The notes under the pieces were generated by a model. That model was given only the letters and a program-made list of their open reading frames with translations, did no database searches and had not been told where the DNA came from. Shown here piece by piece: positions 7,458 to 23,601 of a DNA stretch of 37,620 bases. Origin of the DNA: Thermodesulfobacteriota bacterium (lineage in GTDB: Bacteria > Desulfobacterota > BSN033 > UBA1163); assembly GCA_041082155.1 (NCBI GenBank), contig JBDOIB010000155.1:1-37620 (forward strand), given 5' to 3'. How positions within the stretch are numbered: the stretch's first letter is position 1; every line of letters begins with the position of its first letter. Both the position numbers and the translations under genes were made by a program.

Positions 7458-7470
7458 AGATATTCCTCCT

Positions 7471-8643
7471 TTATTCTCCAACCATTTTTAAAGCTTCCAC
7501 AACCTTCTGGGCTCCATCATACATTCCACTCGCTACCGTAAAGTTGAGTCCTGAGTCATTAAGAATCTTTCTTCCTTCCTCGACGTTTGTTCCTTCCAAT
7601 CTTACCACGATGGGAACTTTCACTCTCACCTCCCTTACTGCTTCTGTTACGCCTTTTGCCAGAGTGTCACATCGAAGAATTCCTCCAAAAATATTAATAA
7701 ATACCACCTTCACATCGGGATCGGACATTAGAATTTTAAACCCATTCTTTACCATTTCCACCGTGGCTCCCCCTCCTACATCAAGAAAATTTGCAGGTTC
7801 TGCCCCAAAGACCTTTATAATATCCATTGTGGCCATAGCAAGGCCTGCCCCATTTACCATACACCCCACATTTCCGTTAAGTTTAATATAGTTTAAATTA
7901 TATTTAGACGCCTCAATCTCTAAAGGCTCTTCTTCATGAAGATCCCTGAGCTCAACAATTTCTTTGTGCCGAAAGAGTCCATTGTCATCAAAATTCATTT
8001 TTGCATCCAAAGCAAAGAATTCTCCATTTTTTGTTTGGATAAGAGGATTGATTTCGGCAAGTAGACAATCCTTCTCATAAAAAACATTAAAAAGCCCGAT
8101 GATAACGGGTCTCAGTTTTCCGACTTCCACCGGTCCAAAGCCTAATCCATATCCAATCTTGTTCACCTGAAATGGCCTCAATCCTATTGAAGGATCGATC
8201 CATTCTTTTACAATCTTCTCAGGAGATTCAGCGGCAACCTTCTCAATCTCTATTCCTCCTTCCCTGCTGGCCATAATCACAGGTAAGGCTCTTGTTCGAT
8301 CAATAACGACTCCTAAATAGAGTTCCTCTTTAATGTCCATTTGTTCTTCGACCAGAATCTTCCGAACCACTTTTCCCTTTGGACCGGTCTGGGGAGTGAT
8401 GAGAGTCATCCCGATCATCTCTCTTGCTACTTTTTCGACCTCTGAGGGGGTGTGAACCACCCGGACCCCTCCTCCTTTTCCCCTCCCCCCTGCATGGATT
8501 TGAGCCTTCAGAACCATTGATTCAGTTCCAATCTCCTCTGAAACCCGCTTAGCCTCTTCTGGGGTTTCTACCACTCTTCCCTTTGGAACAGGAACCCCGT
8601 ATTGTCTGAGGATCTCTTTCGCTTGATACTCATGGATCTTCAT
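7471..8643 (-). CDS. sucC: Succinyl-CoA synthetase beta subunit
   Basis: [58 protein letters not shown]. Confidence 0.97.
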
Positions 8644-8792
8644 ATCTCCCTCCCTCGCTTAGTTAAAGAATTTCCCAATATTATAACGAATTTTTAAAAT
8701 CAAACAATATTTACTTAGAACACACCCCTTCATTTTATCCATAGAAATAGGAGTAGAAAGGAAATTTATGGAAAAGAAAGAGACAGAGGAAC

Positions 8793-10466
8793 TTAACGGA
8801 TCGTCCCAAGATAGTGTGTGGTAAGCTGACGTTCACGGACCTTGGGATTGGTATAGTCTGGAAGAAGCATTGGAGCCACACGATCGGTTACGATTCCTGC
8901 TTCTTCAAGCTCCCTGTGATATTTTCTGACATGGTCCAGGGTCAACTTTCCATCTTTAAATTTCTCTTTGGCATAAATGGCTGCGCTCTCTCCTGCAATC
9001 CTACCGAAGACACAGACATCCAGAAGAGAGTTTCCCATTAAACGATTCTCTCCATGAACTCCTCCTGTCACCTCACCCGCTGCAAAAAACCCTGGCAGAG
9101 AGGTTTCACATCGGCTATTATATTCTAATCCGCCATTCTGATAATGGAGGGTAGGATAGACCAGCATAGGTTCTTTTGAAATGTCGATTCCATATCTTTT
9201 AAATAGAATATATTTTCCAGGAAACTCTCTCTTCACTGTTCCTTCGCCCCATAACATATCAATCATCGGAGAATCCAACCAGACCCCCACTTTACCGGTA
9301 GGAGTAGGAACTCCTTTCCCAATCTCGGTACACTCCCGGATAAACGAAGCCGATTCTACATCTCTTGGTTCTCGTTCGTTGACAAATTGTTCTCCATCAA
9401 TGTTTAGAACATTTGCACCCGCCCCTCTGAATTTTTCCGTGATTAAAAGCCCCTCCGCTTGTTCGGGAAATACTGCTCCTGTAGGATGATATTGGACGGT
9501 ATGAAGGAAGCAGAGTTTGACCCCTGCTCGATATCCCATCACCAGTCCATCTCCGGTCGCCCCATAATGATTGGTTGTCATGAACCCCTGAATATGAAGC
9601 CTCCCTGAACCTCCTGTAGCCATAATGACCGCTTTTGCTTTAACCACGAGATATTCCTCTGTTTCCAGGTTATAAAGAACAGCTCCAGAGCAATGCCCAT
9701 GCTCATTCAATATCAGTTCAACCGCTGGAGAGAACTCAAGAACCTTTATTTCCTCGGGATGATTCCTCGCCTCATCCCGGAGTGTCCTCATAATCTCAGC
9801 TCCGGTAATATCCGCAGCATAATGCATTCGTTTTCGACAGGTTCCTCCTCCATGAAGGGTTTTGAGACGTCCATCAGGAAACTTTGTAAACATGCAACCC
9901 AGACTCTCTAACCAAGCTAAGACCTTAGGAGCTTCGGTGACTAAAGTATAGACTAATTCTGGATCATTTTTGAAATGTCCTCCTCCCATCACGTCCAAAT
10001 AATGAAAATAAGGAGAATCCTTTGTTCCTTTGGTCGCCGCTTGAATTCCCCCCTCGGCCATCATGGTATTGGCATCTCCGTGTCTGAGTTTTGTTGCGAT
10101 CAAAACCTTTACTCCCTTCTCCCGGGCCGTCAGCGCAGCAGCGGTGCCTGCTCCTCCTCCCCCAATAATCAGAACGTCTGTTTCATAAGCAATCTTTGCA
10201 AGGTCAATCAAATCTGGATTGACCCGACTCCGAGCTTCCAAAAGATTGACAATCTCGGGAGAGATTGCATAACCCTTGTTGACTCCTACCCGAATCTCTC
10301 GTCGTGCCCCTTCTACGAAATCAGGGTGATATTTTCTCAATCTCTCTTCCCTTTCTTTAAGGGAAAGCAGGGGAAATTCTTCTCCTCTTCTTTTCCTTTC
10401 AATTCTTGCTGGTCGAGTAGCCTCAACCCTTTTTATTAACTGTTTTAGTTCTGTAGTGTAGGGCAT
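8793..10466 (-). CDS. Fumarate reductase/succinate dehydrogenase-family flavoprotein (FrdA/SdhA/TfrA-like), atypical
   Basis: GGGGAG FAD motif, MAEGG, ATGG, QYHPTG, LITE, PRDV, PTLHYQNGG, HGENRLMGNSL. About 95-aa N-terminal extension, no covalent-FAD His, short C-terminus. Confidence 0.88.
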   Translation of the reverse strand: MPYTTELKQLIKRVEATRPARIERKRRGEEFPLLSLKEREERLRKYHPDFVEGARREIRVGVNKGYAISPEIVNLLEARSRVNPDLIDLAKIAYETDVLIIGGGGAGTAAALTAREKGVKVLIATKLRHGDANTMMAEGGIQAATKGTKDSPYFHYLDVMGGGHFKNDPELVYTLVTEAPKVLAWLESLGCMFTKFPDGRLKTLHGGGTCRKRMHYAADITGAEIMRTLRDEARNHPEEIKVLEFSPAVELILNEHGHCSGAVLYNLETEEYLVVKAKAVIMATGGSGRLHIQGFMTTNHYGATGDGLVMGYRAGVKLCFLHTVQYHPTGAVFPEQAEGLLITEKFRGAGANVLNIDGEQFVNEREPRDVESASFIRECTEIGKGVPTPTGKVGVWLDSPMIDMLWGEGTVKREFPGKYILFKRYGIDISKEPMLVYPTLHYQNGGLEYNSRCETSLPGFFAAGEVTGGVHGENRLMGNSLLDVCVFGRIAGESAAIYAKEKFKDGKLTLDHVRKYHRELEEAGIVTDRVAPMLLPDYTNPKVRERQLTTHYLGTIR

Positions 10467-10521
10467 AACAAAAGCCTCCTATTTTCTTCCCTTCGTTCAT
10501 GAATGAAGGTTAAGAAGAGAT

Positions 10522-11262
10522 TTAAAGATACGTTTTGTCTCTTGGTTCCCAGAATTCATCTGCCTGTTCCGGTTCGATCTCTCTTTCGTTATAAAGTTTT
10601 TTAAGTGTCTCCTCATCGGTATCCATCAGTTCCCTGAGCATCTGTTCATACTTCCCCCGGCGAACCTCTTCCACCATCTCGGCCAGATGTTCAGCCTTAG
10701 GAAGAATATATTTCCCGTAAAGTCGTCTTCCCAGGATTGCTACATTATACTGGCAGATCTCCGCAGGGCATCGAGCTGTGCAGAGTCCACACATGACACA
10801 GTCAAATGAGAGTTCGGCCAATCGAGCAATATCTCCCCTCATCGCCGCAGCGATGTAATCCATCACCTCGATATCCATTGGACAGGATTTCGTGCATGTA
10901 TTACATTGGAGACATCTCAGAACCTCAGGATAGTATTTTACGATGGTTTCGATCGAAGGCTTGATCTTTTCTATATCATACACACTTTTTGTCGCTGGAA
11001 AGAAAGGAATTTGAGCGAGATACATATTGGGTTGGACCACGGTCTGACAGGCCAATCCCACTTCGATTTTATAGCTTCCTGGGAATCGGTAAACAGTGCC
11101 ACAGGCTCCACAGATCCCTCCACGACAGCCACAGCCTCGAATCAATTGATATCCCGCATATTCCATCGCCTTTTGAATGGTCAGGGAAGAAGGAACTTCA
11201 TATCGCTTTCCCATGATAAATATGGGTACTAACTCTTCCTTTTTCGCTCCCTGTTCTTCCAT
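10522..11262 (-). CDS. FrdB/SdhB-like iron-sulfur protein ([2Fe-2S] plus 2x[4Fe-4S])
   Basis: GCGCRGGICGAC...LACQ, then CLQCNTCTKSCP and CVMCGLCTARCP; adjacent to the flavoprotein. Confidence 0.85.
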   Translation of the reverse strand: MEEQGAKKEELVPIFIMGKRYEVPSSLTIQKAMEYAGYQLIRGCGCRGGICGACGTVYRFPGSYKIEVGLACQTVVQPNMYLAQIPFFPATKSVYDIEKIKPSIETIVKYYPEVLRCLQCNTCTKSCPMDIEVMDYIAAAMRGDIARLAELSFDCVMCGLCTARCPAEICQYNVAILGRRLYGKYILPKAEHLAEMVEEVRRGKYEQMLRELMDTDEETLKKLYNEREIEPEQADEFWEPRDKTYL

Positions 11263-11319
11263 AGATCCCTCCCGCTTTTTACATAAAGCATAGGATTTAA
11301 AAATAGTCCTTTACATCAT

Positions 11320-12465
11320 TTAGATGGCCCCGGATTCGAGTTTGAGTTCATCTTCTTTGAAGGTGGCCACGGGGGGTGTTTCGTGGGGATCTCGTCCGGG
11401 CACGTAGTCGAACATCTTCTGGATCTTTTCTCCTACGCTTCGGAAGAGGATGGCGACTGGGAGCCGGCTTGGGCAGGCGCTTTCGCAGAGTCCGCATCCG
11501 ATGCAGGAGGTGACCATGTGGGACATCCGGATCAGGTGGAAGATGAGGGTATCGGTGGGCATGCGGATGGCTCCTTTGCGCTCGGCCCATCTTAAGAATT
11601 GATCCCCGTCGTGTTCGAAAACGGCGGTTCGAAAAACGCACTCCTTGCAGTAGCAGATCGGGCAGGCCACCATACAATTATGACATCGGATACAGGTGGA
11701 AAAAAGATCCAGAAAGGATCCCAACCCCTTGAGTTTCCCCCTGAACTCTTCAAAGGTTTCGTCCCTCTTTTTTATTCTTTTTCCTATCACCTTCCGAAGC
11801 ACTTCGTCTCTCTCTTTAGATCTTTCTGCTTCTTGCAGCCTCACCCCCTTTTCCTCCATCTCCTTTTCCAACCTCTCTTCAATCTCCAGTCCGATCTCTC
11901 TGTCTGTGGGATGGCCGTAGAGCTGGATCCAGAGGTCTGCTCGGGTGATGGGATACTCACAGATCTCGCAGGCCTTGCGAAAAGAGTAGCCCTCTGGGGC
12001 TGTCTCCTCCCCTTTCTCCATCCCTTTGAGGAGCTCTTGGAGAATCCCGTCACCTTTGCCTTCCTCCACCATCTTTGTATAATCATTTACTTCAAAAGTC
12101 CCGGGGCAGTCAATGCCGATGAGGAAGAGAGGATCCAGTTTCACCTGAAGGAACTTCGACAGTTCCACCATTGCCCGAATCTCGCAGGCCTTGAGGACCA
12201 GGGCGACCTTTTTGCTTAGGTTCTTGACCGAGAGATAGGAGGCCACCCTCGCGGACTGCACCGGCATGGTGGGAGAAAGCACGCAGAGCCCTTCCATCTT
12301 CTCAGGATCACGAACCAATGTCTGCACACTCCCCTGGCCCGAAGGAAGCCTCTTCGGCACAAGCACAGCCTCCACCACCCCTTTTTCCAAAAAGCTTCTC
12401 AGTAACCCTTGAAGGGCCTCCTCTCTCTTCCCTTCAGAAACCTTCAGCACCGCCTGCTTCGCCAT
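11320..12465 (-). CDS. FdhB/FrhB-family (F420 hydrogenase/dehydrogenase beta-like) iron-sulfur protein
   Basis: LKACEIRA, IGIDCPG, RKACEIC, CIRCHNCMVACPICYCKEC, CIGCGLCESACP; start moved to MAKQ (12465) on SD evidence. Confidence 0.8.
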   Translation of the reverse strand: MAKQAVLKVSEGKREEALQGLLRSFLEKGVVEAVLVPKRLPSGQGSVQTLVRDPEKMEGLCVLSPTMPVQSARVASYLSVKNLSKKVALVLKACEIRAMVELSKFLQVKLDPLFLIGIDCPGTFEVNDYTKMVEEGKGDGILQELLKGMEKGEETAPEGYSFRKACEICEYPITRADLWIQLYGHPTDREIGLEIEERLEKEMEEKGVRLQEAERSKERDEVLRKVIGKRIKKRDETFEEFRGKLKGLGSFLDLFSTCIRCHNCMVACPICYCKECVFRTAVFEHDGDQFLRWAERKGAIRMPTDTLIFHLIRMSHMVTSCIGCGLCESACPSRLPVAILFRSVGEKIQKMFDYVPGRDPHETPPVATFKEDELKLESGAI

Positions 12466-12494
12466 CTTCTCTCCTTCTCCTTTCTTTTTCTCTC

Positions 12495-12917
12495 TCAGGC
12501 ATTCCACAGCTGTCGCATGGGATTGGGTCCCATCTTCTTTAGCTCCTCCACCATCCGGGTCACTGTATCTGCAAACAGCTTCCCCTCACTGGCACTGATC
12601 CACCTCAGCCAGATCCGATCCTCGCTAAAACCCAGCTCCTTGAGAATCCCCTTGAGGATCGCCACTCTCCTTCGAGCCTTGAAGTTCCCGGTCTGATAAT
12701 GGCAGTCTCCGGGATGACATCCTCCGATCAACACCCCATCGGCTCCGTCAATCAGCGCCTTGAGCACATAGATCGAGTCCACCGCTCCGGAGCACATCAA
12801 ATGAATGATTCGAATATTCGGGGGATACTGCTGGCGAGTCGTTCCCGCTAAATCCGCCCCTGTATAGGTACACCAGTGACAAAGAAATGCAATAATCCGA
12901 GGCTCAAACTCTGCCAT
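12495..12917 (-). CDS. mvhD: MvhD/FlxD-family [2Fe-2S] adaptor subunit
   Basis: FLCHWCTYTGADLAG, LMCSG, GADGVLIGGCHPGDCHY, WISASEG. Confidence 0.93.
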   Translation of the reverse strand: MAEFEPRIIAFLCHWCTYTGADLAGTTRQQYPPNIRIIHLMCSGAVDSIYVLKALIDGADGVLIGGCHPGDCHYQTGNFKARRRVAILKGILKELGFSEDRIWLRWISASEGKLFADTVTRMVEELKKMGPNPMRQLWNA

Positions 12918-12945
12918 ACCGACCTCCTTCCCTCCCTCTGCCTGA

Positions 12946-15900
12946 CTAATCGATGGCTGAATCGAGAACCACCAGATTCAGACCCTTCTCAAAGTTCTGC
13001 TGCTGGGAGGCAGCATTGCGACAGGCCACCACACAGCTGCCACATCCCTCACAAAGCGCCTCCCTTACCTCCGCCTTCCCCTCCTCATTGAGCACCCTCG
13101 CCCCATAAGGACAAACCGTGACACAGAGACCACACCCACAGCACAACCTCGAAATCACATAGGCCCGATAGGGTTTCTCCTCTCGCCTTCCCTTCGAAAG
13201 AATCGCCCCGGCTCGGGCTGCCACGGCATTGCCCTGAGAGATGACCTCCTCCATCAAATTGGGCGAATGACATAACCCACAAAAGAACTTCCCCCGCTCC
13301 AGGGCATCCAGAGGCGCCGCCTTCGGATTGGGCTCCTTAAAAAACCCATCCGCATTGAGCTCCAACCCAAACATCTCTGCAAGCGCCCGATGATCATTTG
13401 GCTCAATCCCTGTGCTCAGAATCAATCGATCCGCAGGAAGATCCACCCGAGCCCTCAGGGCTGGATCAAACACCGAAACCCAAAGCCTTCCATCCTCCCT
13501 CATGACCTTGGGCTTCTCCTCCGGCTCATACCGAATAAAGATGACCCCCTTCTCTCTGGCCTCATGATAATAACTCTCATAAAACCCATAGGTCCTCACA
13601 TCCCGATAAAGCACATAGACCCTCACCTGCGGCCTCCACTGCTTCAGCCGAAGGGCATTCTTGACCGCATGAGCACAACAGATGCGACTGCAATAGGGAT
13701 GCTCCTCATCCCTCGAGCCCACACACTGAATCATCACGACCGAGCGGAGATCCCCGAGACTCTCCTTCTCGAAATGAAGCGCCCTCTCCAACTCTCGCTG
13801 GGTCATCACCCGCGAATCCTCCCCATAGAGATACTCCTTCGGCCTTATCTCTCTGCCACCGGTGGCCAGGATGAGGACTCCATGATCCACCACCTGCTCC
13901 CCTTCCACACTCCTCAGCCTTGTCCGATACCCCCCATCCCTCCTCTCGCTTCCTATGACCTCTGACCCTAAAAAGAGATGGATCAAGGGATGGGTAGTGA
14001 GCCTCTGGATAAGCTCCTCAAGGAATCGCTGGGGATCCCCTCCCCTTATCGTATAATAAGACCTTCTCGCATTGCCCCCTAACTCCTTCTCCCTCTCCAC
14101 CAGAAAGACCTCACAGCCCTGCTCCGCTAACCGAAGGGAGGCCGTCATCCCAGCCACCCCTCCTCCAACCACCAAACCCTTCCTCTCAACCGGATGAGAC
14201 CCCCTCCGAAGAGGCTGAATCCTCCTGGCCCGCTCCACCGCCATCCGAATCAATACAAAAGCCTTCTCCGTGGCCTCCCGCACAAGCCCCGGATGAACCA
14301 ACGCACACTGCTCCCCAATATTTGCATACTCGATCAGATAAGGATTAAACCCCATCCCCCTGGCCATCTCCTCCATCCTCTTGCGAACCTCCTTCAAAGA
14401 ACAACCCGCTATCACCAGCCGATTCAAACCCTCCTCCCCCATCTTTACCTTTATCGGATGAAGATCCTCAGAGAGATGGACTCTCTCGAGCTCTCCCACA
14501 TAAACCACCTCTCGAAGCCCCTTGACCCTCTCAGTCAACTCCTCCATCAAAAGATTCTTCCTCAACTCCTCTCCTCGATGGCAGATAAAGACCCCTATCC
14601 TCGGAATCTCCTCTCCCAGAGCCCCTTCCACAGGATACTCCCGCTCCCCCACGGAAGACACAGAAGAAAGAAAAGAGGCTGCCATCGCCGCCGCACTGGA
14701 ACCCTCCACCACCGTCTCCGGAATATCCCGAGGAGCCCGAAAAGCACCCCCAACGAAAATCCCCCTCACCGAAGTCTCCGCAGGACGAAACTCCTCCGTC
14801 TCACAAAAGCCCGAAACATTCAACCTCACCCCTAACCGCTCGGCCAACTCCCGAACCCCCTGAGGAGGAGTAAATCCCACCGAAAGCACCACCACATCAA
14901 ACTCCCTCTCCTCAAACGACCCATCCTCCTTCACATAGGTGATCAAAAGATTCTTCGACTGCTGAAGTTCCTTGATCGAAGAGACCGCACTCCGGATATA
15001 CTCAATCCCATACTGCCTCCTCGCCCTCTCATAATAACGCTCATAATCCTTCCCCATCGGACGAATATCCATATAAAACAGAGCCACCCGAAGATCAGGC
15101 GCCCGATCCTTCGCAATCATCGCCTGCTTGGTCGCATACATACAACAGATCGTCGAACAGTGGGGCTGACCCGAAGAAGGATCCCTCGAACCCACACACT
15201 GAATAAAAGCCACCCTCCCAATCCTCCTGCCATCCGAAGGACGAACCGGATAGCCCCCCGTCGGAGAAGAGGTCGAAAGAAGCCTCTCAAACTGAATACT
15301 CGTCATCACATTCCGATACCGACCAAACCCATACTCCCCCTTCCTGGCCGCCCAAAAGGGCTCAAACCCGAATCCCAACAGAATCGCCCCCACCTGAAGG
15401 AGCTCCTCCTCCCCCCTCATCTCCAAATCAATCGCCCCAGGCCCACACACCCTCACACACTCCCCACACCGAATACAACTCTTAGGATCAATCACCAGAG
15501 CATGAGGAATCGCCTGAGCAAATGGTAAATAGATCGCCTTGCGCCTCTCCAACCCTCCCCCAAACTCCCTCTCCACCTCCACCGGACAGACCTCCAGACA
15601 GGCCCCACAAAACGTACAACGCCCCGGATCCACAAACCGAGGCTTGTGAAACACCTTGACCCTAAAATCTCCCCCTCCTCCCTCCACCTCCCTTAACTCA
15701 CAATAAGGAAGAAGCTCTATGTTCTCATGAAGATGACTCTCATAAATCGGACAAAACGCAGGAGGCAGGGGACTCAAAAAACAGACCCCACAGGAATTCG
15801 TCGGAAACGTCCTGTCCAACAACGGAAAATACCCCCCAATCGCAGGCGCCTGATCCAAGAGAAACACCCTTCTGCCCATCTCCCCCAACAGAAGAGCAGC

Positions 15901-15957
15901 CTGCATCCCCGAAATCCCAGCACCCACCACTAAAACCGAACCCCTATCTCCCTTCAT
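12946..15957 (-). CDS. hdrA: Large HdrA-family flavoprotein with two fused HdrA FAD modules (1003 aa)
   Basis: Two GxGxxG FAD motifs (GAGISG, GGGVAG), two FIQC/MIQC-VGSRD...CSxICC motifs, an inserted ferredoxin domain in the first half and a C-terminal ferredoxin domain. Confidence 0.92.
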   Translation of the reverse strand: MKGDRGSVLVVGAGISGMQAALLLGEMGRRVFLLDQAPAIGGYFPLLDRTFPTNSCGVCFLSPLPPAFCPIYESHLHENIELLPYCELREVEGGGGDFRVKVFHKPRFVDPGRCTFCGACLEVCPVEVEREFGGGLERRKAIYLPFAQAIPHALVIDPKSCIRCGECVRVCGPGAIDLEMRGEEELLQVGAILLGFGFEPFWAARKGEYGFGRYRNVMTSIQFERLLSTSSPTGGYPVRPSDGRRIGRVAFIQCVGSRDPSSGQPHCSTICCMYATKQAMIAKDRAPDLRVALFYMDIRPMGKDYERYYERARRQYGIEYIRSAVSSIKELQQSKNLLITYVKEDGSFEEREFDVVVLSVGFTPPQGVRELAERLGVRLNVSGFCETEEFRPAETSVRGIFVGGAFRAPRDIPETVVEGSSAAAMAASFLSSVSSVGEREYPVEGALGEEIPRIGVFICHRGEELRKNLLMEELTERVKGLREVVYVGELERVHLSEDLHPIKVKMGEEGLNRLVIAGCSLKEVRKRMEEMARGMGFNPYLIEYANIGEQCALVHPGLVREATEKAFVLIRMAVERARRIQPLRRGSHPVERKGLVVGGGVAGMTASLRLAEQGCEVFLVEREKELGGNARRSYYTIRGGDPQRFLEELIQRLTTHPLIHLFLGSEVIGSERRDGGYRTRLRSVEGEQVVDHGVLILATGGREIRPKEYLYGEDSRVMTQRELERALHFEKESLGDLRSVVMIQCVGSRDEEHPYCSRICCAHAVKNALRLKQWRPQVRVYVLYRDVRTYGFYESYYHEAREKGVIFIRYEPEEKPKVMREDGRLWVSVFDPALRARVDLPADRLILSTGIEPNDHRALAEMFGLELNADGFFKEPNPKAAPLDALERGKFFCGLCHSPNLMEEVISQGNAVAARAGAILSKGRREEKPYRAYVISRLCCGCGLCVTVCPYGARVLNEEGKAEVREALCEGCGSCVVACRNAASQQQNFEKGLNLVVLDSAID

Positions 15958-15987
15958 CTCCTCACTACTCCATTTTTAAAATAAACC

Positions 15988-16833
15988 TCACTCCAACCCC
16001 AAAGACTCCAACAGAGGCCGAGGAGAAATCAAATGCTTCCCCCACCACCTCTGCCTCTCTCCCACCTCAAAGGCCAACCCCATCAACTCCGTAAAATAAA
16101 AGACCGGAAGCCCCAACTGCTGCCTCATCTCCAAATTCATCTGACATAACCCACAGGAGGTCACAATCGCCTGAGCCCCCGCCTCCAGAGCCATCGACAC
16201 AATCCTACCCACCATCTGCCTCACAATCGACCCATAGGTCATCGCTAAATCCGCCCCACAACAGTCCACCTTATAAGACCACTCCACCGGCTGCGCCCCA
16301 AGCATCCTCATCAACCGCTCCATCACCTGAGGATTCTCCGCATCATCAAACCCCGTCACCTTCGGATGACGAACCAACGCACACCCATAATAACACGCCA
16401 CCCTCAACCCCCGAAGAGGCCTCCTCACCCTCTCCCCAACCCTCTCCAAACCCACCCGATTCACCACCACATCCAAGAGTGCCAAAATCTCCAACGAAGG
16501 ATCATACCGAAAACCCACAATCTCCTCCACCACCCTCCGATCCCTCTCATCCCTCCTGAGCACATACTCCGTCCTCTTCAAATTACTAAAACACCCCGCA
16601 CACGGAACCACTAACCAAGATAACCCCGACCCCAAAGCCTTCGCTATCACCCGCGCAGGAAGACAAAGAGATAAAAGACGATTCAAACTATGGGTGGCCG
16701 CAGCCCCACAACAGTTCCAATCCTCCACCTCCACTAACTCCACCCCCAAAACCCTCAACACCTCCTCCGCCGATAACCCATACTCCATCGACGAAGAACG
16801 ATCCGTACAACCCGGAAAATACGACACCCTCAT
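15988..16833 (-). CDS. hdrB: Heterodisulfide reductase subunit B (copy 2)
   Basis: Two CCG domains: YFPGC/WNCCGA/PCAGC and YYGC/DCCGA/SCGLC; start MRVSY with GGAGG SD. Confidence 0.93.
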   Translation of the reverse strand: MRVSYFPGCTDRSSSMEYGLSAEEVLRVLGVELVEVEDWNCCGAAATHSLNRLLSLCLPARVIAKALGSGLSWLVVPCAGCFSNLKRTEYVLRRDERDRRVVEEIVGFRYDPSLEILALLDVVVNRVGLERVGERVRRPLRGLRVACYYGCALVRHPKVTGFDDAENPQVMERLMRMLGAQPVEWSYKVDCCGADLAMTYGSIVRQMVGRIVSMALEAGAQAIVTSCGLCQMNLEMRQQLGLPVFYFTELMGLAFEVGERQRWWGKHLISPRPLLESLGLE

Positions 16834-16872
16834 CCCAAACCTCCAAACCACCTAAATAAAATAAACCCCACT

Positions 16873-17454
16873 CTACTCTCCCTTCCTACACCTTTCAAAA
16901 ATCCTCCGAATCTCCTGCCTCCCCCTCACCACACTGGGAAACAATGGAAACTTCCCCTTAAAAAAAAGCCTCAACCCCGAACCCAACGACTCCCTCATCA
17001 AATCCCTACTCCTGAGCACATAATCCATCAACATCGTCACCTCATGAACCCTCCCACCCCTCCTCACACTCTCCATAAACGCCTCATGCAACAGATGAAT
17101 CCTCCTCTCCCTCACCTCCACCCCCTCCTCCAACGCCATCTCCCTAAGCGCATCCATCAACACCCCCACATGAATCTCATTCGGACACCGAGTCCCACAC
17201 GTCTGACAATACACACAAAACCATATCGCCCCACTCCCCAATACCTCCTGCCTCCTCCCCATCTGAATCATCCGAATCAACTGATTCGGCTTAATATCCA
17301 TATACGGAGCCGTCGGACATCCCGCCGTACACTTCATACACTGATAACATAACTCCAACCGCTCCCCACTCCTCCGCCGAACCTCCTCCAAAAAAGAACC
17401 ACCCAACTCCCCCATCCCTAAACCAACCTCCATCCTTCCCTCCATCATCTCCAT
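16873..17454 (-). CDS. hdrC: Heterodisulfide reductase subunit C (copy 2)
   Basis: CYQCMKCTAGCP and WFCVYCQTCGTRCP; upstream of hdrB; exact start uncertain. Confidence 0.9.
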   Translation of the reverse strand: MEMMEGRMEVGLGMGELGGSFLEEVRRRSGERLELCYQCMKCTAGCPTAPYMDIKPNQLIRMIQMGRRQEVLGSGAIWFCVYCQTCGTRCPNEIHVGVLMDALREMALEEGVEVRERRIHLLHEAFMESVRRGGRVHEVTMLMDYVLRSRDLMRESLGSGLRLFFKGKFPLFPSVVRGRQEIRRIFERCRKGE

Positions 17455-17469
17455 CCTCCAATAAGGCTT

Positions 17470-19419
17470 TTATATAAAGGTGTCAACCATTCGAAGGGTC
17501 TGAACCGATGATGAATTTCGTAGTTCACATGCAAAATTAGGACATGCAGCAATACAGGCCCCGCATCCTTGACAGAGGGCACCATGAACGATGGAGACTC
17601 CCCGTCGATAGTCCATCTCCCTTGCCTCATAGGGGCAAATTTCAACACAAATCCCACAACCACTGCAAATGGTTTCATCCACAAAGGCAATGAGCGGATC
17701 CTGAAAAAGTTTGTCCGTCGAAAGAAGGGCCTGGATCTTGCTGGCTGTGGCCGATGCCTGGGAGACGGTATCTGTAATATCTTTGGGACCTTGCCCACAT
17801 CCTGCCAGATAGATTCCTTTGGTCGAACTCTCCACGGGATAGAGTTTAATATGGGCTTCAGTCAAAAAACCATGTTTATCTACAGTGGCTCTTAATTTGG
17901 CCGCAAGCTCCTTCACTCCCTCAGAGGGAACGATCGCTGTAGCCAGAACCACCAGATCTGCACCAATCTCTATCCCTTTTCCAGTCAGGGTATCCACCCC
18001 CCAAACCTTAACCTTTCCATCCTCTTGAAAAACCCTTGACACCCGCCCCCTGAGGTAAAGAATTCCATTCTCTTCAATCGTCTTCTGAAGAAACTCCTCA
18101 TAACCCTTTCCATCCGAACGAATATCCATATAGAAGACATAGGGTTGACCATCCGGAACCTGTTCTTTGTACATCTTTGCCTGTTTTGCAGTATACATGC
18201 AACAGATTCTTGAACAATAAGGCATATAACGATCAGGATCTCTGGAGGCCACGCATTGAATAAAAACCATCTCCTTTGGAACCCTTCCATCAGAAGGACG
18301 GATGATTTTCCCTCGGGTAGGCCCATCAGGAGACAGCATCCGTTCAAAGGTCAGTCCATCGATGACGTCAGGAATCTCCCCATATCCATATTCTCCTAAC
18401 TTTTCGGTTGGGAAAAGGTCAAACCCGGTCGCTACGACAATGGCTCCAACCTTTTTTTGGATTCTTTCCTCGTTTTGATCAAATTGAATCGCTTTCCTTG
18501 GACAAACCTCTTCACACCTTCTACAGGTTTGATCCCTAAAGTATCGGCATTGAACCGGTGTAATCACAACCCGGTGAGGAATACAATGAGGATAGAGAAA
18601 ATCGATGGCCTTTCTTACTCCCAAACCTCTTTCAAAAGAAGAAGGGTACTCCATTGGACAGACTTCGATACAAAGGCCACACCCATCGCACTTGCTCCAA
18701 TCCACATAGGAGGCTTTCCTTCGCAATATGATCTCAAAATTTCCTATATATCCCTTTACCTCTTCCAGCTCTGAGTTATAAAAAACTTCAATCCTTGGAT
18801 GACGTTCTATCTCTGAGGCCTTAGCCAAAAGATTAGGAAGAGCTGGAGAAAGATCGGGAAAGGTTTTTGAGAGCTGGGCCATATGCCCCCCCAAGGCCGG
18901 TCCTTTCTCAACCAGAATAACTTCGTACCCTCCCTGGGCGAGATCGAGGGAGGCTGTCATTCCCGCAATGCCTCCTCCAATCACCAAAACATTTCTGTGA
19001 ATGCTCATCGCTAAGGGTTCGAGTTCTTCATTTCTTTTCACTTTCTCTAAAGTGGCCTTTATGATTTCTTGTGCCTTCCGGGTAGCTTCTTCCTTCTCTT
19101 TTTGATGAACCCAGCTACACTGCTCCCGAATATTAGCAATCTCACAGAGATAGGGGTTCATCCCTGCGGCCTTCACTGCCTTGCGAAAGGTATTTTCATG
19201 CATACTCGGCGAGCAACAGGCAACCACCACTCCCTCTAACTGCTTCTCCTGAATGGCCTCTCGGATAAGTTGTTGTCCGGGTTCTGAACACATATAGATA
19301 TAGTCGACACTATGAGAGACCTCCTCGATTTTGCCAATCTCTTCGGCCACTTTTTTCACATCTACTGTGCCCGCAATATTTACTCCACAGTGACAGATAA
19401 AAACTCCCAATCTCTTCAT
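17470..19419 (-). CDS. hdrA: Heterodisulfide reductase subunit A, full-length type (649 aa)
   Basis: GVFICHCG N-terminal domain, ACCSP, NIREQCSWVH, GGGIAG, inserted ferredoxin, FIQC...YCSRICC, C-terminal 2x[4Fe-4S]. Confidence 0.95.
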   Translation of the reverse strand: MKRLGVFICHCGVNIAGTVDVKKVAEEIGKIEEVSHSVDYIYMCSEPGQQLIREAIQEKQLEGVVVACCSPSMHENTFRKAVKAAGMNPYLCEIANIREQCSWVHQKEKEEATRKAQEIIKATLEKVKRNEELEPLAMSIHRNVLVIGGGIAGMTASLDLAQGGYEVILVEKGPALGGHMAQLSKTFPDLSPALPNLLAKASEIERHPRIEVFYNSELEEVKGYIGNFEIILRRKASYVDWSKCDGCGLCIEVCPMEYPSSFERGLGVRKAIDFLYPHCIPHRVVITPVQCRYFRDQTCRRCEEVCPRKAIQFDQNEERIQKKVGAIVVATGFDLFPTEKLGEYGYGEIPDVIDGLTFERMLSPDGPTRGKIIRPSDGRVPKEMVFIQCVASRDPDRYMPYCSRICCMYTAKQAKMYKEQVPDGQPYVFYMDIRSDGKGYEEFLQKTIEENGILYLRGRVSRVFQEDGKVKVWGVDTLTGKGIEIGADLVVLATAIVPSEGVKELAAKLRATVDKHGFLTEAHIKLYPVESSTKGIYLAGCGQGPKDITDTVSQASATASKIQALLSTDKLFQDPLIAFVDETICSGCGICVEICPYEAREMDYRRGVSIVHGALCQGCGACIAACPNFACELRNSSSVQTLRMVDTFI

Positions 19420-19452
19420 AAGTGGCTGTCTTACTTTATCTCTTTCTTCTCT

Positions 19453-20763
19453 TCAATTTTTTGCAAACAAGGCTTGGACCTTGCTTGCTGCTGCATTGGC
19501 ATGGGCCACTGTATCGGCAATATCTTTAGGCCCCTGGACACAGCCTGCTAAATAGATACCTTCGCGTTCAGTCTCCACCGGTCTCAGCTTCCTCTCTGCT
19601 TCGGTCAGAAATCCGTAGGAATCACTTTGAATCCCTAATATCTGAGCTAAGGTCTTTGCTTCCTGATGTGGGATGATCGCCGTAGCCAGAACAACAAGAT
19701 CGACAAGCACCTCTACCTTTTTCCCTGTAAGGGTGTCTACGCCCCAAACCACAATCTTTTCTCCCTCTCGGAAGATCCTTGAAACCCGTCCTCTTAAATA
19801 GAGAATCCCTTCCTCCATCGTCTGTTGAATAAATTCTTCATATCCTTTCCCCGTAGATCGAATATCCATGTAAAAGATATAGACCTGTCCCTCATGAACT
19901 TTATGTTTATACAGTCGGGCATGTTTGGCAGTATACATACAGCAAACCCTTGAGCAATAGGGCATATATCGCTCCGGATCCCTTGAGCCTGTACATTGGA
20001 TAAAAACAACCTCTTTAGGGACCTTTCCATCTGAAGGTCTTCGGATTTCTCCGTTTGTGGGTCCAGAGGCTGAGTTCAGTCTCTCAAAGGAAAGCCCATC
20101 GATCACGTCCGGTATCTCTCCATATCCATATTCTCCAAATCGTTCGATGGGCATCAGATCAAATCCGGTAGCAACAATAATCGCTCCGACCTTCTCTTCA
20201 ATGATTCGATCCTCTTGTTGATAATTGATTGCCCCGACCGGACAGATTTTTTCACACACCCGACACTTTTTCTCCAAAAAATAACGGCAGTGAGCAGGAT
20301 TGATGACGGGTTTATTGGGGACCGCTTGGGGAGAAAGCGTATAGATGGCCTTCCCCATCCCCATCCTTCGATCAAATTCAGATGGGTATTTAGAAGGACA
20401 TTTCTGTTGACAGAGACCGCATCCTGTACACTTTTCCCAATCGACATAGCTTGCTTTTTTAAGAATCTGAACGGTAAAATTTCCAGCTTCACCCTCTACT
20501 TTGACCACTTCTGAATAGGTATGAAGATGGATACGGGGATGCTGGCCTGTCTCAACCGTTTTAGGGGTAAGGGTACATTGGGCACAGTCAAGGGTAGGGA
20601 ATGTCTCGGAAAGCTGAAGCATTCGGCCCCCGATGGATGGTAATCTTTCCACCAGGAGGACCTCATATCCAGCATTGCCAATATCAATCGATGCAGTGAT
20701 TCCGGCAATTCCCCCACCGATCACCATCGCCCTTTTAATAAAACCATTCCCGGAAGAACCCAT
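19453..20763 (-). CDS. hdrA: Heterodisulfide reductase subunit A, short type (436 aa, QmoA-like architecture)
   Basis: GGGIAG, TFPTLDCAQC, inserted ferredoxin, FIQC...YCSRVCC, GPKDI; lacks the N-terminal and C-terminal Fe-S domains. Confidence 0.92.
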   Translation of the reverse strand: MGSSGNGFIKRAMVIGGGIAGITASIDIGNAGYEVLLVERLPSIGGRMLQLSETFPTLDCAQCTLTPKTVETGQHPRIHLHTYSEVVKVEGEAGNFTVQILKKASYVDWEKCTGCGLCQQKCPSKYPSEFDRRMGMGKAIYTLSPQAVPNKPVINPAHCRYFLEKKCRVCEKICPVGAINYQQEDRIIEEKVGAIIVATGFDLMPIERFGEYGYGEIPDVIDGLSFERLNSASGPTNGEIRRPSDGKVPKEVVFIQCTGSRDPERYMPYCSRVCCMYTAKHARLYKHKVHEGQVYIFYMDIRSTGKGYEEFIQQTMEEGILYLRGRVSRIFREGEKIVVWGVDTLTGKKVEVLVDLVVLATAIIPHQEAKTLAQILGIQSDSYGFLTEAERKLRPVETEREGIYLAGCVQGPKDIADTVAHANAAASKVQALFAKN

Positions 20764-20808
20764 CTCTCTCTTCTGCCTTCCTTCCCATGAAGAAGAACTG
20801 AATGGAGA

Positions 20809-21678
20809 CTAAATGAATCCTTTCCTTTTTAAAAAGGGAATTGGATCCACCGCATTCTGGTCAAACCCTAAGGCTTGAGGATCCAGTCCCATCGCCACTC
20901 CCAGGAGCTGAGTAAAATAGAGCACCGGAATCGTTTTGAAATCCAAGTGAGTCTTCAGGATATCCGATTGTTTTTGATCCAAGTTAAATGTACAGAGGGG
21001 ACAGGTCGAAACCACCACTTCGGCTCCTTGCTTCATCGCAGAAGTTAAAATTCGATAAGCACATTCCGTAGCCACCTCCGGAGAACCCACAGATTGAAAC
21101 GAGCCACAGCATTCAATCTTATATGGAAAATCGATAGGCTTTGCCCCTAATGATTCTAAAAATTCTTCGAAGAGGGTTGGCCTTTCTTTGTCATCAAAAC
21201 CCATTTCTTCAAAGGGACGGAGAAGCATACACCCATAGTATGGGGCCGCTTGAATCCCATTCAAAGGTTTTTTCACTTTTTCCTTGAGGGTTGAAAAACC
21301 AATCTCCTGTTTTAATATTTCAAGATAGTGTAAAACTTTCAGATCTCCTTGATAATTCATTTCCATAAATTGATTAATCTTCTCGCGTTTTTCTCCATCC
21401 CTCTGAAGTAAATGATTTGTCCTTTTAATGACATTAAAACAAATAGCACAAAGAGTCGTAAGGATTTCTCCCTGTTCCTTTGCTCTGGCTAAAATTCTTG
21501 CAGGAGGAAGAAGGGCCATGAGGTTATCTGTGGCTAAAGGAAAGGTGGCTCCACAACACGTCCAGTTCGGAAGTTCGACAAGTTCAAATCCGAGGAGGAG
21601 AGAACAATTTCGAGCCGTTTGATCGAAGTTCTTGGCTTTGGTATAGAGGGTGCATCCTGGAAAATAGAGATAATTCAT
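20809..21678 (-). CDS. hdrB: Heterodisulfide reductase subunit B (copy 1)
   Basis: YFPGC/WTCCGA/LCAIC and YYGC/ECCGS/TCPLC; start moved to MNYLY. Confidence 0.93.
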   Translation of the reverse strand: MNYLYFPGCTLYTKAKNFDQTARNCSLLLGFELVELPNWTCCGATFPLATDNLMALLPPARILARAKEQGEILTTLCAICFNVIKRTNHLLQRDGEKREKINQFMEMNYQGDLKVLHYLEILKQEIGFSTLKEKVKKPLNGIQAAPYYGCMLLRPFEEMGFDDKERPTLFEEFLESLGAKPIDFPYKIECCGSFQSVGSPEVATECAYRILTSAMKQGAEVVVSTCPLCTFNLDQKQSDILKTHLDFKTIPVLYFTQLLGVAMGLDPQALGFDQNAVDPIPFLKRKGFI

Positions 21679-21745
21679 AAGCAACTCCAAAATGACACAG
21701 GGCAGAGAGCAGAGCACATAGCCTTAAGCTCTATATGCCCTTCGG

Positions 21746-22159
21746 TTATGAAAGAAATTTTCTGAAACCGCTGATAAAGGCAATCTGAGGAACTCTTTCT
21801 AAAAATCCTTCTGGAAATTCAGAAATCTGAATGTAGTCTTTTCGTTCCTTCTTCCGCAGGATGATCATCCGAAGGGCATCCATCACTCGAGCAATATCAA
21901 TACCCTTAGGACATCTCGAACTGCATTGAAGGCAGGAAGCACATAGCCAGAAGGTATTGACTGAAAGGGCCTCCTCCTCCAGTCCCAACAAAGTGTATCG
22001 AATCACTTCGTGAGGTCCAATGTCCATGGCAAATGCCACGGGGCAGCCGGCGGTACAATTTCCACATTGATAACAGGCAAAGAGATTCTGTCCACTGATC
22101 CATTCCACTTTTTTTGCGAACTCATTATGAACTTTCTCTCTGGATAATTCAATTTTCAT
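21746..22159 (-). CDS. hdrC: Heterodisulfide reductase subunit C (copy 1)
   Basis: CYQCGNCTAGCP and WLCASCLQCSSRCP. Confidence 0.92.
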   Translation of the reverse strand: MKIELSREKVHNEFAKKVEWISGQNLFACYQCGNCTAGCPVAFAMDIGPHEVIRYTLLGLEEEALSVNTFWLCASCLQCSSRCPKGIDIARVMDALRMIILRKKERKDYIQISEFPEGFLERVPQIAFISGFRKFLS

Positions 22160-22175
22160 AGATTCTCCCTATGAT

Positions 22176-22733
22176 TCAGGATCTCTTATATCTTTTCTCT
22201 CCCTCTATATAAAGATCATTCCCCTCGACATCATTGATGACGATTACTGGAAAATCTTCAACCTCTAACCTCCGGATGGCCTCAGGACCCAAGTCTTCAT
22301 AGGCGACGATCTCAGCCCGTTTGATTCTTTTGGCTAAGAGCGCCCCTGCTCCACCTGTGGCTGCAAAATAGACCGCCTTATACTTCTTCATTGCCTCCTT
22401 CACCGGATCAGACCGCATTCCTTTCCCAATCATTCCTTTCAGTCCCTTTTCAATTAAGGCAGGAGAGTAGGCATCCATCCGATAACTCGTCGTGGGCCCC
22501 GCGGATCCGAAGACCCTTCCGGGCGGAGCAGGAGTCGGTCCCACATAATATATAATCTGCCCTCTAATGTCAAAAGGAAGTTCTTTCCCCTCTTTGATTA
22601 ACTCAAAGAGTCTTTTATGGGCTGCATCCCTTCCTGTGTAGAGGATTCCACTGATGAGAACTCGATCTCCAATTCTCAACCTTTCTACATCCTCTTCCCT
22701 GAGAGGCGTCTTTAAACGAATGGGCTCGGGCAT
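22176..22733 (-). CDS. Class I (Fe-S) fumarate hydratase, beta subunit
   Basis: TGRDAAH, YYVGP, GPTTSYRM, MIGKG, TGGAGAL, DLGPEA; start moved to MPEPI on SD evidence. Confidence 0.92.
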   Translation of the reverse strand: MPEPIRLKTPLREEDVERLRIGDRVLISGILYTGRDAAHKRLFELIKEGKELPFDIRGQIIYYVGPTPAPPGRVFGSAGPTTSYRMDAYSPALIEKGLKGMIGKGMRSDPVKEAMKKYKAVYFAATGGAGALLAKRIKRAEIVAYEDLGPEAIRRLEVEDFPVIVINDVEGNDLYIEGEKRYKRS

Positions 22734-22761
22734 CTCTCCTCCTCTCTCCCAATCTCTCCCT

Positions 22762-23601
22762 TTAAAGGATAATCTCTTTATGTCGATGGGCATGGCATTG
22801 AATATTGACAGCCAGAGGAAAACTGGCAATATGACAAGGCATCATCAAGAGATGAACCGCCAGAGAAGTCGTTCTCCCTCCCAATCCCTGGGGCCCTATT
22901 CCAAGCCGATTGATCTCTTCAAGAAGTTCAGACTCCAATCGGTCTAATTCGGGGTCAGGGTTTCGGCTTCCAAGGGGCCTTAGTAGACTCTTTTTTGCGA
23001 GAAGTGCGGCCTGTTCAAAATTTCCTCCAATCCCTACCCCAATGATCGTTGGGGGACAGGGATTTGAACCTGACTCTTTCACTCGCTCGACCACATATCT
23101 CTTAATGCCTTCAATGCCATCGGAAGGGGTCAGCATCACGACTCGACTCATATTTTCACTTCCCCCACCCTTTGGAGCCACAATCAGCTTTACCTTATCC
23201 CCAGGAACAATTTCTAAATGAAGAATCGGAGGAGTATTATCCCCTGTATTGGCCCGGCTGAAAGGATGGCACATAGATTTTCTCAGATATCCCTCTCGAT
23301 ATCCTTGTCTCACCCCTTCAAAGATGGCTTCCTTTAAATCTCCCCCAACAAAGTGAACCTCCTGCCCCACTTCAAGAAAGATGACGGCTACTCCTGTATC
23401 CTGACAGATAGGAACCTTTTCTTCCTTTGCAATACGGGCATTCTCCTTCAATTCCTTGAGAATCTCAATGGCCAAGGGAGATTCTTCCTTCTCAATGGCA
23501 CGATCAAATGCCTGAAGGACATCCTCACCCAAATCGGTGTTGGCTTTGATGCAAAGTTCCCTGACCTTTTCGGTAATCAATCTTACTTCGACCTGTCTCA
23601 T
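22762..23601 (-). CDS. Class I (Fe-S) fumarate hydratase, alpha subunit
   Basis: PICQDTG, YLRKS, NTGDNTP, KGGGSEN, NPCPP, GPQGLGG, NIQCHA. Confidence 0.92.
   Translation of the reverse strand: MRQVEVRLITEKVRELCIKANTDLGEDVLQAFDRAIEKEESPLAIEILKELKENARIAKEEKVPICQDTGVAVIFLEVGQEVHFVGGDLKEAIFEGVRQGYREGYLRKSMCHPFSRANTGDNTPPILHLEIVPGDKVKLIVAPKGGGSENMSRVVMLTPSDGIEGIKRYVVERVKESGSNPCPPTIIGVGIGGNFEQAALLAKKSLLRPLGSRNPDPELDRLESELLEEINRLGIGPQGLGGRTTSLAVHLLMMPCHIASFPLAVNIQCHAHRHKEIIL

Follow-up and report, generated by a model that had tools for sequence, protein, structure and literature searches.

The window analysed here is a stretch of 37,620 nucleotides (nt) from a Thermodesulfobacteriota bacterium, contig C119 of a 2.96-Mb assembly in 491 contigs (genome G000, 44.5% G+C; estimated contamination of the bin 6.65%). 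Almost all genes between 587 and 33549 are carried by the minus strand. They include a cluster that begins with malate dehydrogenase and fumarase genes, continues with two Hdr modules and also holds a soluble iron–sulfur (Fe-S)/flavin adenine dinucleotide (FAD) fumarate-reductase-like pair and succinyl-CoA synthetase. Module 1 consists of HdrC1-HdrB1 and two HdrA-like genes, module 2 of HdrC2-HdrB2, a fused HdrA of 1003 amino acids (aa), MvhD and an FrhB-like protein. The subject of this report is a tract from ~11.6 to 17.465 kb, in which the coding strand of module 2 is extremely loaded with G and T at silent sites. For comparison, two further species-level genomes of the same genus (G001 and G002) and a fourth genome of the genus (G003) were used.

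Composition of the second Hdr module

Module 2 lies on the minus strand and has the make-up of an HdrABC/MvhD set: an HdrC with a 4Fe-4S dicluster, an HdrB with two CCG domains, an HdrA with FAD and Fe-S domains, and MvhD. HdrC2 (16873–17454) matches Pfam Fer4_17/Fer4_8 and HdrB2 (15988–16851) matches Pfam CCG in two stretches (E 3.9e-26). The fused flavoprotein/ferredoxin HdrA1003 (12946–15957) has Pyr_redox_2 and Fer4 matches and the MvhD/FlpD-type subunit (12495–12917) an FlpD match (E 1.5e-51). The FrhB-like Fe-S protein of 395 aa (11320–12507), which forms the tail of the tract, has a Fer4 and a weak FrhB_FdhB_C match. In this order, the share of G+T at third codon positions is.94,.92,.82,.65 and.46, compared with ~.55 in flanking genes. 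Both neighbours on the same strand are ordinary: HdrA649 (17470–19419, G+T.58), the 649-aa HdrA-like gene of module 1 directly upstream that marks the sharp boundary, and an Fe-S subunit gene directly downstream (10522–11262, G+T.52), which adjoins an FAD-binding fumarate-reductase-like gene (8793–10466).

The initial annotation had described an extreme strand asymmetry with G/T loading of synonymous sites, and both are borne out. Among 9119 genome windows of 600 nt, none has a more extreme GC skew than the one at 16801 (-0.661). An absolute GC skew above 0.5 occurs in nine genome windows, four of them within 15901–17400. The seven most extreme keto-skew windows genome-wide all lie in the tract (-0.35 to -0.46; genome standard deviation (SD) 0.067). 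Base counts that had been made by hand proved exact (4 G and 8 T in 16801–16860, 4 G and 7 T in 15421–15480, 3 G in 17101–17160). The skew is located at third codon positions, where A, C, G and T account for.05,.01,.65 and.29 in HdrC2, for.04,.04,.62 and.31 in HdrB2 and for.06,.12,.50 and.32 in HdrA1003; the third-position G-C skew of the tract is +0.9. HdrC2 and HdrB2 rank first and second in third-position G+T among 2618 open reading frames (ORFs) of at least 120 aa (mean.542, SD.050).

Codon choice in the tract is near binary: AAA is used once and AAG 44 times, with GAA/GAG at 4/144, CAA/CAG at 0/40, TAC/TAT at 0/48 and GAC/GAT at 2/45. NAA codons make up 1.3% compared with 35.7% in the flanks, and NAC codons 1.8% compared with 7.5%. 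At four-fold sites A, C, G and T are found at.07,.15,.55 and.24 in the tract and at.27,.24,.22 and.26 in the flanks. The sense strand has an excess of G+T over A+C, as in transcription-associated strand asymmetry. Furthermore, G+C is.52–.55 in the tract compared with.45, and codon usage is atypical.

The proteins are shifted as well. HdrB2 contains 5 Lys and 29 Arg (about 28 Arg had been estimated) and HdrB1 21 Lys and 10 Arg, while the catalytic cysteines of HdrB2 are intact, as had been stated, with both CCG motifs present. Over the whole tract Lys changes from 6.4% to 3.0%, Thr from 5.2 to 2.5%, Ile from 6.8 to 4.2% and Arg from 5.8 to 10.5%; AGG provides 90 of the 155 Arg codons. The ratio of protein divergence from the family to that among the family is 1.55 for HdrC2, 1.56 for HdrB2, 1.33 for HdrA, 1.10 for MvhD and 1.23 for the FrhB-like protein (.86–1.20 in the flanks). 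This relative divergence follows the same 5'-to-3' order as the silent-site bias.

The atypical composition has a sharp 5' border and a gradual 3' border. An abrupt start at ~17455 had been proposed; the start is indeed sharp, with the change point now computed at 17465. This position lies in the junction spacer (17455–17469, minus strand), 15 nt that include the ribosome-binding site and separate the HdrA649 stop codon (17472–17470) from the HdrC2 start. The proposed fading toward 13000–11300 is also seen. Counted per 500 nt from 17465, third-position G+T is.96,.90,.94,.85,.90,.84,.81,.76,.77,.62,.61 and.40. The fading thus spans ~6 kb and runs across gene borders and inside HdrA1003, from ~.9 at its 5' end to ~.75 at its 3' end (Spearman p = 2e-5, 5e-6 and 1e-3 in three species). 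The two spacers inside the tract (16852–16872 and 15958–15987) contain no C in 51 nt, with A retained.

The junction spacer measures 15–35 nt in three species of the genus compared with 50–90 nt in other genera. The longer spacers of the other genera (loci L145–L164) often hold GC-rich palindromes followed by T runs, resembling terminators or repetitive extragenic palindromes (REP). Loss of this element between the modules coincides with the lineage that shows the bias. Promoter-like sites in 10800–18200 number 6, compared with 4.0 ± 2.0 in shuffled sequence. Among contigs from RNA libraries, module 2 is found in study X9 and module 1 hardly at all, and both are found in study X8; such contigs cannot rank expression or show transcript starts.

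Vertical inheritance of the tract

A chimeric assembly, which the initial annotation had raised, is ruled out. The whole window is colinear in G001 (87–89% nt identity) and in G002 (79–83%), with the same tract and boundary. Third-position G+T in these congeners is.83 and.86–.87 for HdrC2 and.70 and.74 for MvhD, respectively. Two metagenome contigs (L210 and L211, ~95% nt identity to G002) align colinearly across the junction with both the window and G002, HdrB2 of three metagenome contigs (87–88% protein identity) has G+T of.92–.93, and a contig of an independent study spans 17431–18102, across the junction. At least 79% of sampled tract words are present in seven sequencing runs from two studies, all labelled hot springs metagenome; one of these is possibly the source.

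Two contigs depart from this picture. L212 (2130 nt) encodes a G002-like HdrB2 (G+T.93) and leaves all three genomes ~130 codons into HdrA1003 (position 1400, corresponding to 15563). Beyond this point its sequence is of ordinary composition, and an insertion, a rearrangement or a misassembly is possible. In run X2, one short contig end departs from the window at 17460, the composition boundary, and continues with 45 AT-rich letters. The summed contig depth in the same run is 222–371 over 11.2–17.6 kb compared with ~180 in the flanks. Relatives that co-occur and have another upstream context may account for both the contig end and the excess depth.

All more distant orthologues examined are ordinary, so that the tract bias is restricted to the genus. 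In 20 genomes of other genera, third-position G+T is.46–.62 for HdrB2,.49–.60 for HdrC2 and.43–.57 for HdrA. HdrB2 composition was computed for 80 further loci, 38 out of 80 kept from genome collections and 42 out of 80 kept from metagenomes. HdrB2 G+T is.43–.66 in 36 of the former, the other two being the G001 and G002 records, and.53–.66 in 39 of the latter. No intermediate state was found among the orthologues examined.

The two-module arrangement is syntenic across the family and the class, and the neighbours are colinear in all relatives (20 other-genus genomes). In trees of 13 genomes (IQ-TREE), tract and flank proteins both nest the genus in the family as a clade, within which the branching order is identical. 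The two sets differ in branch length: the stem of the genus measures.23 for the tract and.099 for the flank proteins, and the tip of this genome.085 compared with.031; IQ-TREE flags the tract proteins of this genome as compositionally deviant. Tract and flanks have co-diverged among the three species, and the biased state was kept through 12–17% nucleotide divergence. A horizontally acquired island was rejected, since neither phylogenetic incongruence with the flanks nor a synteny break among relatives is observed. Given the synteny of the cluster and the shared position of tract and flank genes in the protein trees, the tract is native and vertically inherited and not a foreign insert.

The fourth genome of the genus, G003 (a 97%-complete bin), has no match to 6500–24600 above 73% nt identity over ~200 nt and is uninformative on the tract. 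Its region for succinyl-CoA synthetase, fumarate reductase, Hdr and fumarase is missing, either lost or not binned. Elsewhere in the window, the release factor 2 ORF (5385–6392) has 335 aa and a TTG start. It is shorter than usual, which would be expected if the programmed +1 frameshift typical of the 5' region of prfB is present.

Direction of change and further biased genes

Codon positions 1 and 2 were compared with sites conserved in at least 80% of 15 other genera. The coding-strand excess of A>G and C>T that had been postulated is present: in the tract of this genome A>G outnumbers G>A by 80 to 10 and C>T outnumbers T>C by 36 to 6, with C>G at 26 compared with 19 G>C and T>G at 16 compared with 8 G>T. 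In the flanks the corresponding pairs are 26/35 (A>G/G>A), 22/3 (C>T/T>C), 7/15 (C>G/G>C) and 5/4 (T>G/G>T). G001 and G002 have the same asymmetry. No such asymmetry is seen for the same genes in control lineages, where A>G and G>A are 22/15 (G012), 16/13 (G015) and 27/27 (G005). These changes had been read as a signature of deamination. Deamination alone does not account for the fact that, on balance, G replaces C and T at four-fold sites.

Third-position changes specific to each lineage were polarised with the two sister species. In this lineage A>G amounts to.44 per A site and G>A to.028 per G site, compared with.135 and.143 in the flanks. G001 is relaxing, with 61 G>A and 36 T>C compared with 10 A>G and 11 C>T. 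Per-site changes toward G/T in this lineage occur at ~1–1.7 times the flank rate and those toward A/C at.13–.6 times, which fits either selection at silent sites or a suppression of changes that arise on the template strand.

Pairwise divergence at two-fold silent sites is.119,.120 and.187 in the tract compared with.188,.283 and.291 in the flanks (.42–.64 times the flank value). At four-fold sites it is.31–.37 compared with.32–.49 (.74–.97 times). Pairwise amino-acid divergence, on the other hand, is 1.6–2 times higher in the tract. Comparison with an independent run shows strain-level differences at 16 of 4196 positions in the tract and at 18 of 4526 and 10 of 2604 in the flanks. Localised hypermutation was rejected because silent sites of the tract have diverged less than those of the flanks, and because tract and flanks are equally divergent between strains. 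Pairwise silent distances fall between rough two-state expectations for mutation bias and for selection, which cannot separate the two because the sites are near saturation.

The bias had been thought to be confined to module 2. This does not hold: third-position G+T is at least.70 in 31 of the 2618 ORFs, including a por operon. The 40 ORFs outside the window with the highest values were annotated by Pfam; many are on short contigs, some with mobile genes. The top twenty comprise four IS110 transposases, two thiolases, the alpha and beta subunits of a pyruvate/2-oxoacid:ferredoxin oxidoreductase, an HdrD-like Fer4+CCG protein, two SNF2 helicase fragments, PRiA4_ORF3, DUF6788, a papain-like peptidase and six ORFs without a family. 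Among the next twenty are glutamate dehydrogenase, an acyl-CoA ligase, a thiolase, PAS histidine kinases, aromatic amino-acid synthesis genes, nucleases and others. Several separate islands each begin at an operon start.

The por island (porD-A-B-G, 2-oxoacid:ferredoxin oxidoreductase; G000:C75:5019-~7900, locus L290 620–3504) lies on a 35.7-kb contig among ordinary genes of the same orientation. Its third-position G+T of.78–.83 sets in at the porD start codon (porD.83, porA.80–.81, porB.78) and, judged for porG by the skew profile, fades inside porG. The bias is genus-specific, with.81 here,.67–.70 in three congeners and.51–.61 in 11 other genomes. Changes specific to this genome are 32 A>G and 5 G>A, 20 C>T and 8 T>C, and 14 C>G and 2 G>C; the same pairs are 9/14, 10/7 and 1/1 in the upstream flank gene. 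The directional bias is thus still running in this lineage, in module 2 as well as in por.

The four IS110 genes (contigs C445, C415, C219 and C5) have third-position G+T of.76–.82 and a mutual identity of 25–39%, except for one pair at 89%. A bias shared across such divergent transposases leaves translational optimisation without explanatory force.

The bias had been tied to the coding strand, which is true of most biased ORFs but is not a strict rule, as a real gene elsewhere shows the complementary image. The genes for methylmalonyl-CoA mutase (Pfam E 3.8e-234) and a neighbouring corrinoid adenosyltransferase (G000:C38:5520-7734, loci L181 and L190) have a complementary bias. Four-fold sites of the mutase gene contain C.66, T.05, G.10 and A.20, the exact complement, compared with C.33–.40, T.15–.25 and G.19–.28 in six other genera. 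The genus restriction and the ranking of lineages are the same as for the tract, this genome being the most extreme. Per-site changes here are 9/257 for T>C compared with 5/438 for C>T, and 15/348 for G>A compared with 8/409 for A>G; in G001 and G002 the gene is relaxing, with 17–18 C>T compared with 3 T>C.

Among the ORFs inspected there are five bona fide cases of mirror polarity: the mutase, its adenosyltransferase neighbour, a PHO4 fragment, an HD-domain ORF and the 3' end of the FrhB-like gene. In the latter gene, third-position G+T is.66 at the 5' end, and the last ~95 codons (11320–11620) are reversed, with third-position C of.50–.58 and T of.04. A promoter-like match on the plus strand (11278–11307) in the downstream spacer points into this 3' end; it is weak and one of the 6 promoter-like sites mentioned above. 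The mutase mirror image is better explained by a process acting on DNA strands than by a single selection at the mRNA level.

Possible causes and comparison with known systems

Taken together, several features suggest that the process acts on a DNA strand and not through selection on codons: the bias sets in sharply at the 5' end, weakens both across and within genes, depletes one strand of the two amino bases, drags the proteins along, recurs in unrelated genes such as transposases and has a mirror image on a template strand. The sense polarity of 31 ORFs compared with about five of opposite polarity argues for transcription as the usual organiser. The favoured explanation, to which a probability of roughly 45% is assigned, is a 5'-anchored, strand-asymmetric bias of mutation or repair on what is usually the non-template strand. 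The main rival is selection on the sense strand.

The favoured bias would be long-running and lineage-specific, tied to the 5' end of a transcription unit, from which it would weaken with distance. It would deplete one strand of A and C in favour of G and T, and this strand is the non-template (sense) strand here and in the majority of islands. Most likely, transcription bubbles or R-loops would leave that strand more accessible in single-stranded form; preferential repair of the template strand might act instead or as well. Damage to amino bases (A>G, C>T, C>G) would then become fixed on one strand, and the reverse changes G>A and T>C, which arise from the other strand, would be suppressed. 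The hot-spring habitat may amplify such chemistry. The bias would saturate silent sites and drag only tolerant amino-acid sites (Lys to Arg and others), because purifying selection keeps the proteins working. From these patterns we infer that transcription sets anchor and polarity, that single-strandedness or strand-specific repair is causal and that temperature matters.

A number of observations weigh against this explanation. The bias is concentrated in reading frames and its onset is at the ribosome-binding site or start codon, both in module 2 and in por. The 80-nt non-coding flanks of high-bias ORFs have G+T of.55 upstream (n=10) and.59 downstream (n=9), compared with.50 for other genes, a shift much smaller than that at four-fold sites; the IS110 bias ends at the ORF ends, with ordinary non-coding flanks. 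At four-fold sites G increases at the expense of C and T, with no rise in T. The purine share of these sites is.59–.62 in the three species, compared with.49 in the flanks and.38–.50 in the same genes of 15 other genera. In this lineage 31 T>G at third positions face 5 G>T, a change that deamination does not produce. The ribosomal-protein operon, rpoBC and two groEL genes are ordinary (.50–.62), so that, under the usual assumption of their high expression, simple transcription level is not the determinant. No conserved promoter was found at the junction, where a TTGACA (17486–17481) is present in this genome only. The mirror-image gene needs an extra assumption, for example antisense or convergent read-through transcription. 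Finally, the onset is genus-specific without a gene loss that would explain it among the genes checked (EndoV, UDG, RNase HI, Rho and the deaminase family). Real difficulties for the favoured explanation are that the bias is concentrated in ORFs, that it includes transversions toward G, that housekeeping operons are spared and that a conserved promoter was not found.

The gene content of the genus was inspected for candidate causes. Loss of genes controlling deamination or R-loops was rejected, as EndoV, UDG, RNase HI and Rho are each present in all four genomes of the genus. An extra cytidine deaminase was not found; the dCMP/cytidine-deaminase family has three matches per genome, as in relatives. 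Escape from a toxin of the RelE/HigB type is likewise unsupported. The RelE/ParE family PF05016 has no match in G000, G002 and G003 and two in G001, one copy of which has stop codons, and the HigB-like family PF05015 is found in none of the four genomes; RelE/ParE toxins are present in 11 of 12 other genera of the family. Compared with 200 synonymous-codon shuffles, no avoidance of short motifs beyond codon usage was found (ACA occurs five times in 4449 nt). A replication-strand codon bias was discarded since the same-strand genes directly upstream and downstream are ordinary, and translational codon optimisation since ribosomal-protein genes do not share this codon preference and the amino-acid composition is shifted.

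Selection on the make-up of the sense strand or mRNA, by which G/U-rich and C/A-poor transcripts would be favoured in a subset of operons, is doubtful but fares best among the rivals. Such transcripts could evade Rho loading on C-rich untranslated RNA, evade RNases or be chemically more stable when hot, and selection would be strongest near the 5' end, where an early failure costs all downstream genes. Several of the difficulties just listed are what this explanation expects: a bias concentrated in ORFs from the ribosome-binding site or start codon on, a gain of G from all three other bases (including the T>G excess) and unaffected housekeeping operons, which are well translated. The presence of Rho, the lowered two-fold silent divergence with suppressed substitutions toward A/C, the state kept during the divergence of the species and the tract spacers without C are in line with it, too. 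However, 94–96% G+T at hundreds of silent sites together with the replacement of residues would need a strong selection per site that is hard to credit. The mutase mRNA is complementary, that is C-rich and U-poor, and the bias does not reach module 1, which lies 15 nt upstream and belongs to the same array of genes. Signalling kinases, transposases and nucleases are also biased, and no out-of-frame motif is depleted beyond codon usage.

A more far-reaching idea is a self-reinforcing asymmetry that targets operons in thermophilic prokaryotes. G-rich and C-poor transcripts would evade Rho and form stable R-loops, and the displaced strand would lose still more A and C. This idea is rather improbable. 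If true, a subset of operons would reach near-pure G/T at silent sites while their proteins are recoded, an analogue of promoter-anchored somatic hypermutation on the evolutionary scale.

Strand asymmetry could also arise independently of transcription, in the manner of vertebrate mitochondria, if one strand became single-stranded repeatedly from a fixed entry near 17465 through nick-primed strand displacement, replication restart or directional resection. The sharp start with its distance gradient, the loss of amino bases on one strand and the mirror gene, whose polarity sits on the template strand, would agree with such a process. It is nevertheless unlikely: a process blind to orientation would be expected to yield a more even ratio than 31 sense to five opposite cases, the separate islands begin at operon starts, and the neighbours are colinear. 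Relaxase, Rep or nickase genes were not found among the annotated genes of the window. Conjugative transfer and strand-displacement replication, both suggested by the initial annotation, are thus supported neither by gene content nor by synteny.

Still less likely is a translational "codon dialect", a regulon recoded to NNG/NNU for tRNAs with C34/G34 or for a state of tRNA modification, or alternatively escaping from an mRNA endonuclease that depends on the ribosome and recognises A or C in the codon at the A site. The almost complete avoidance of AAA, GAA and CAA, the confinement to ORFs and the mixture of metabolic, mobile and defence-like genes would suit a dialect. The 43 tRNAs form a set that is not unusual and include C34 isoacceptors for Lys, Arg, Gly, Leu, Pro, Thr, Val and Ala; tRNA-Glu(CUC) and tRNA-Gln(CUG) were not found in this incomplete assembly. 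Yet Lys is halved although AAG would be permitted, a gradient exists within one gene, RelE/ParE and HigB-like toxins are mostly absent in the genus, and the mutase shows the mirror image.

Least likely is an import or a repeated gene conversion from a donor with extreme skew that replaced the native module 2 at gene boundaries: despite the higher G+C, the atypical codons, the boundary at a gene junction, the X2 contig end at 17460 with its greater tract depth (222 vs ~180) and the biased ORFs on short contigs with mobile genes, synteny, trees and co-divergence are as described above, no closer or skewed donor occurs among the 80 HdrB2 loci computed (all sequences of at most 75% identity have G+T of.43–.66), the directional change continues, and a single import would not leave a smooth 6-kb gradient. 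A localised process and a skewed donor had both been offered initially. Given synteny, co-divergence and continuing change, a process in situ is more plausible than a single donation.

Mutation or repair bias, the favoured explanation, and sense-strand selection differ in what the tract would mean. In either case the bias acts on single operons, removes ~95% of silent A/C and rewrites tolerant residues of conserved redox enzymes; it arose in one hot-spring genus and continues in one lineage. If mutational, the tract would be a natural read-out of single-stranded or preferentially repaired DNA in a slow-growing thermophile, with local mutation pressure overriding protein constraint. If selective, it would point to an unrecognised layer of constraint at the mRNA level. 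Either way, such tracts mimic horizontal transfer in composition screens, distort trees and break stationary substitution models.

By gene content, the locus resembles Hdr-coupled soluble fumarate reductase clusters: it has two HdrABC-like modules, MvhD, the FrhB-like protein and the FAD/Fe-S fumarate-reductase-like pair, with malate dehydrogenase, fumarase and succinyl-CoA synthetase genes as neighbours. This content is ordinary for the family; what is unusual is the nucleotide composition of module 2, in this genus only.

Bacterial strand asymmetries are normally weak, chromosome-wide and tied to replication. To our knowledge, the tract bias is far above any described bacterial strand bias. 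The general literature on replication and transcription skew returned by a full-text search held, in the portions available, no description of an extreme G/T loading limited to operons. In Borrelia, codons ending in G or T prevail on the leading strand. Replication-strand-specific codon usage is also reported for Lawsonia intracellularis (PMC2671203, available in part). The preference for codons ending in G or T is alike, and its origin in strand-specific mutation would be shared under the favoured explanation, but the bias of these bacteria is chromosome-wide, modest and flips with the orientation to replication, whereas here same-strand neighbours 15 nt away are ordinary.

Vertebrate mitochondria have a strand asymmetry with a gradient in single-stranded time. 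The loss of A and C on one strand (A>G, C>T), the positional gradient and the dragged amino-acid usage are similar. Unlike there, a 6-kb piece of chromosome and not the whole replicon is affected, no origin or strand-displacement system is evident, and the polarity is mostly gene-oriented.

Somatic hypermutation by AID is anchored at promoters, and GC skew at promoters is linked to R-loops. These systems are comparable only in how they work: the decay over kilobases and the C>T and C>G changes are alike, and in the tract the onset would likewise lie just downstream of a transcription start and the target would be the displaced non-template strand. In the tract, however, silent divergence is not raised, no extra deaminase gene is present and the time scale is evolutionary.

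Transcription-associated asymmetry is a further comparable system. Beletskii and Bhagwat in 1996, Green et al. in 2003 and Touchon et al. in 2003 reportedly described cytosine deamination on the non-transcribed strand of E. coli and, in mammals, a sense-strand G+T excess that begins at the transcription start site and fades downstream. Mutational strand asymmetries of this kind have been reviewed (PMC2031905 and PMC10030826, both available in part). The bias of the tract is an order larger, affects few operons and leaves presumably highly expressed housekeeping operons normal, so that its strength, on that assumed expression, does not scale with transcription. It is also concentrated in ORFs, includes transversions toward G and has one mirror-image gene. 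Common to both are the sign of the sense-strand G+T excess, the 5' anchor, the decay with distance and a suppression of the reverse changes rather than a great increase of the forward ones.

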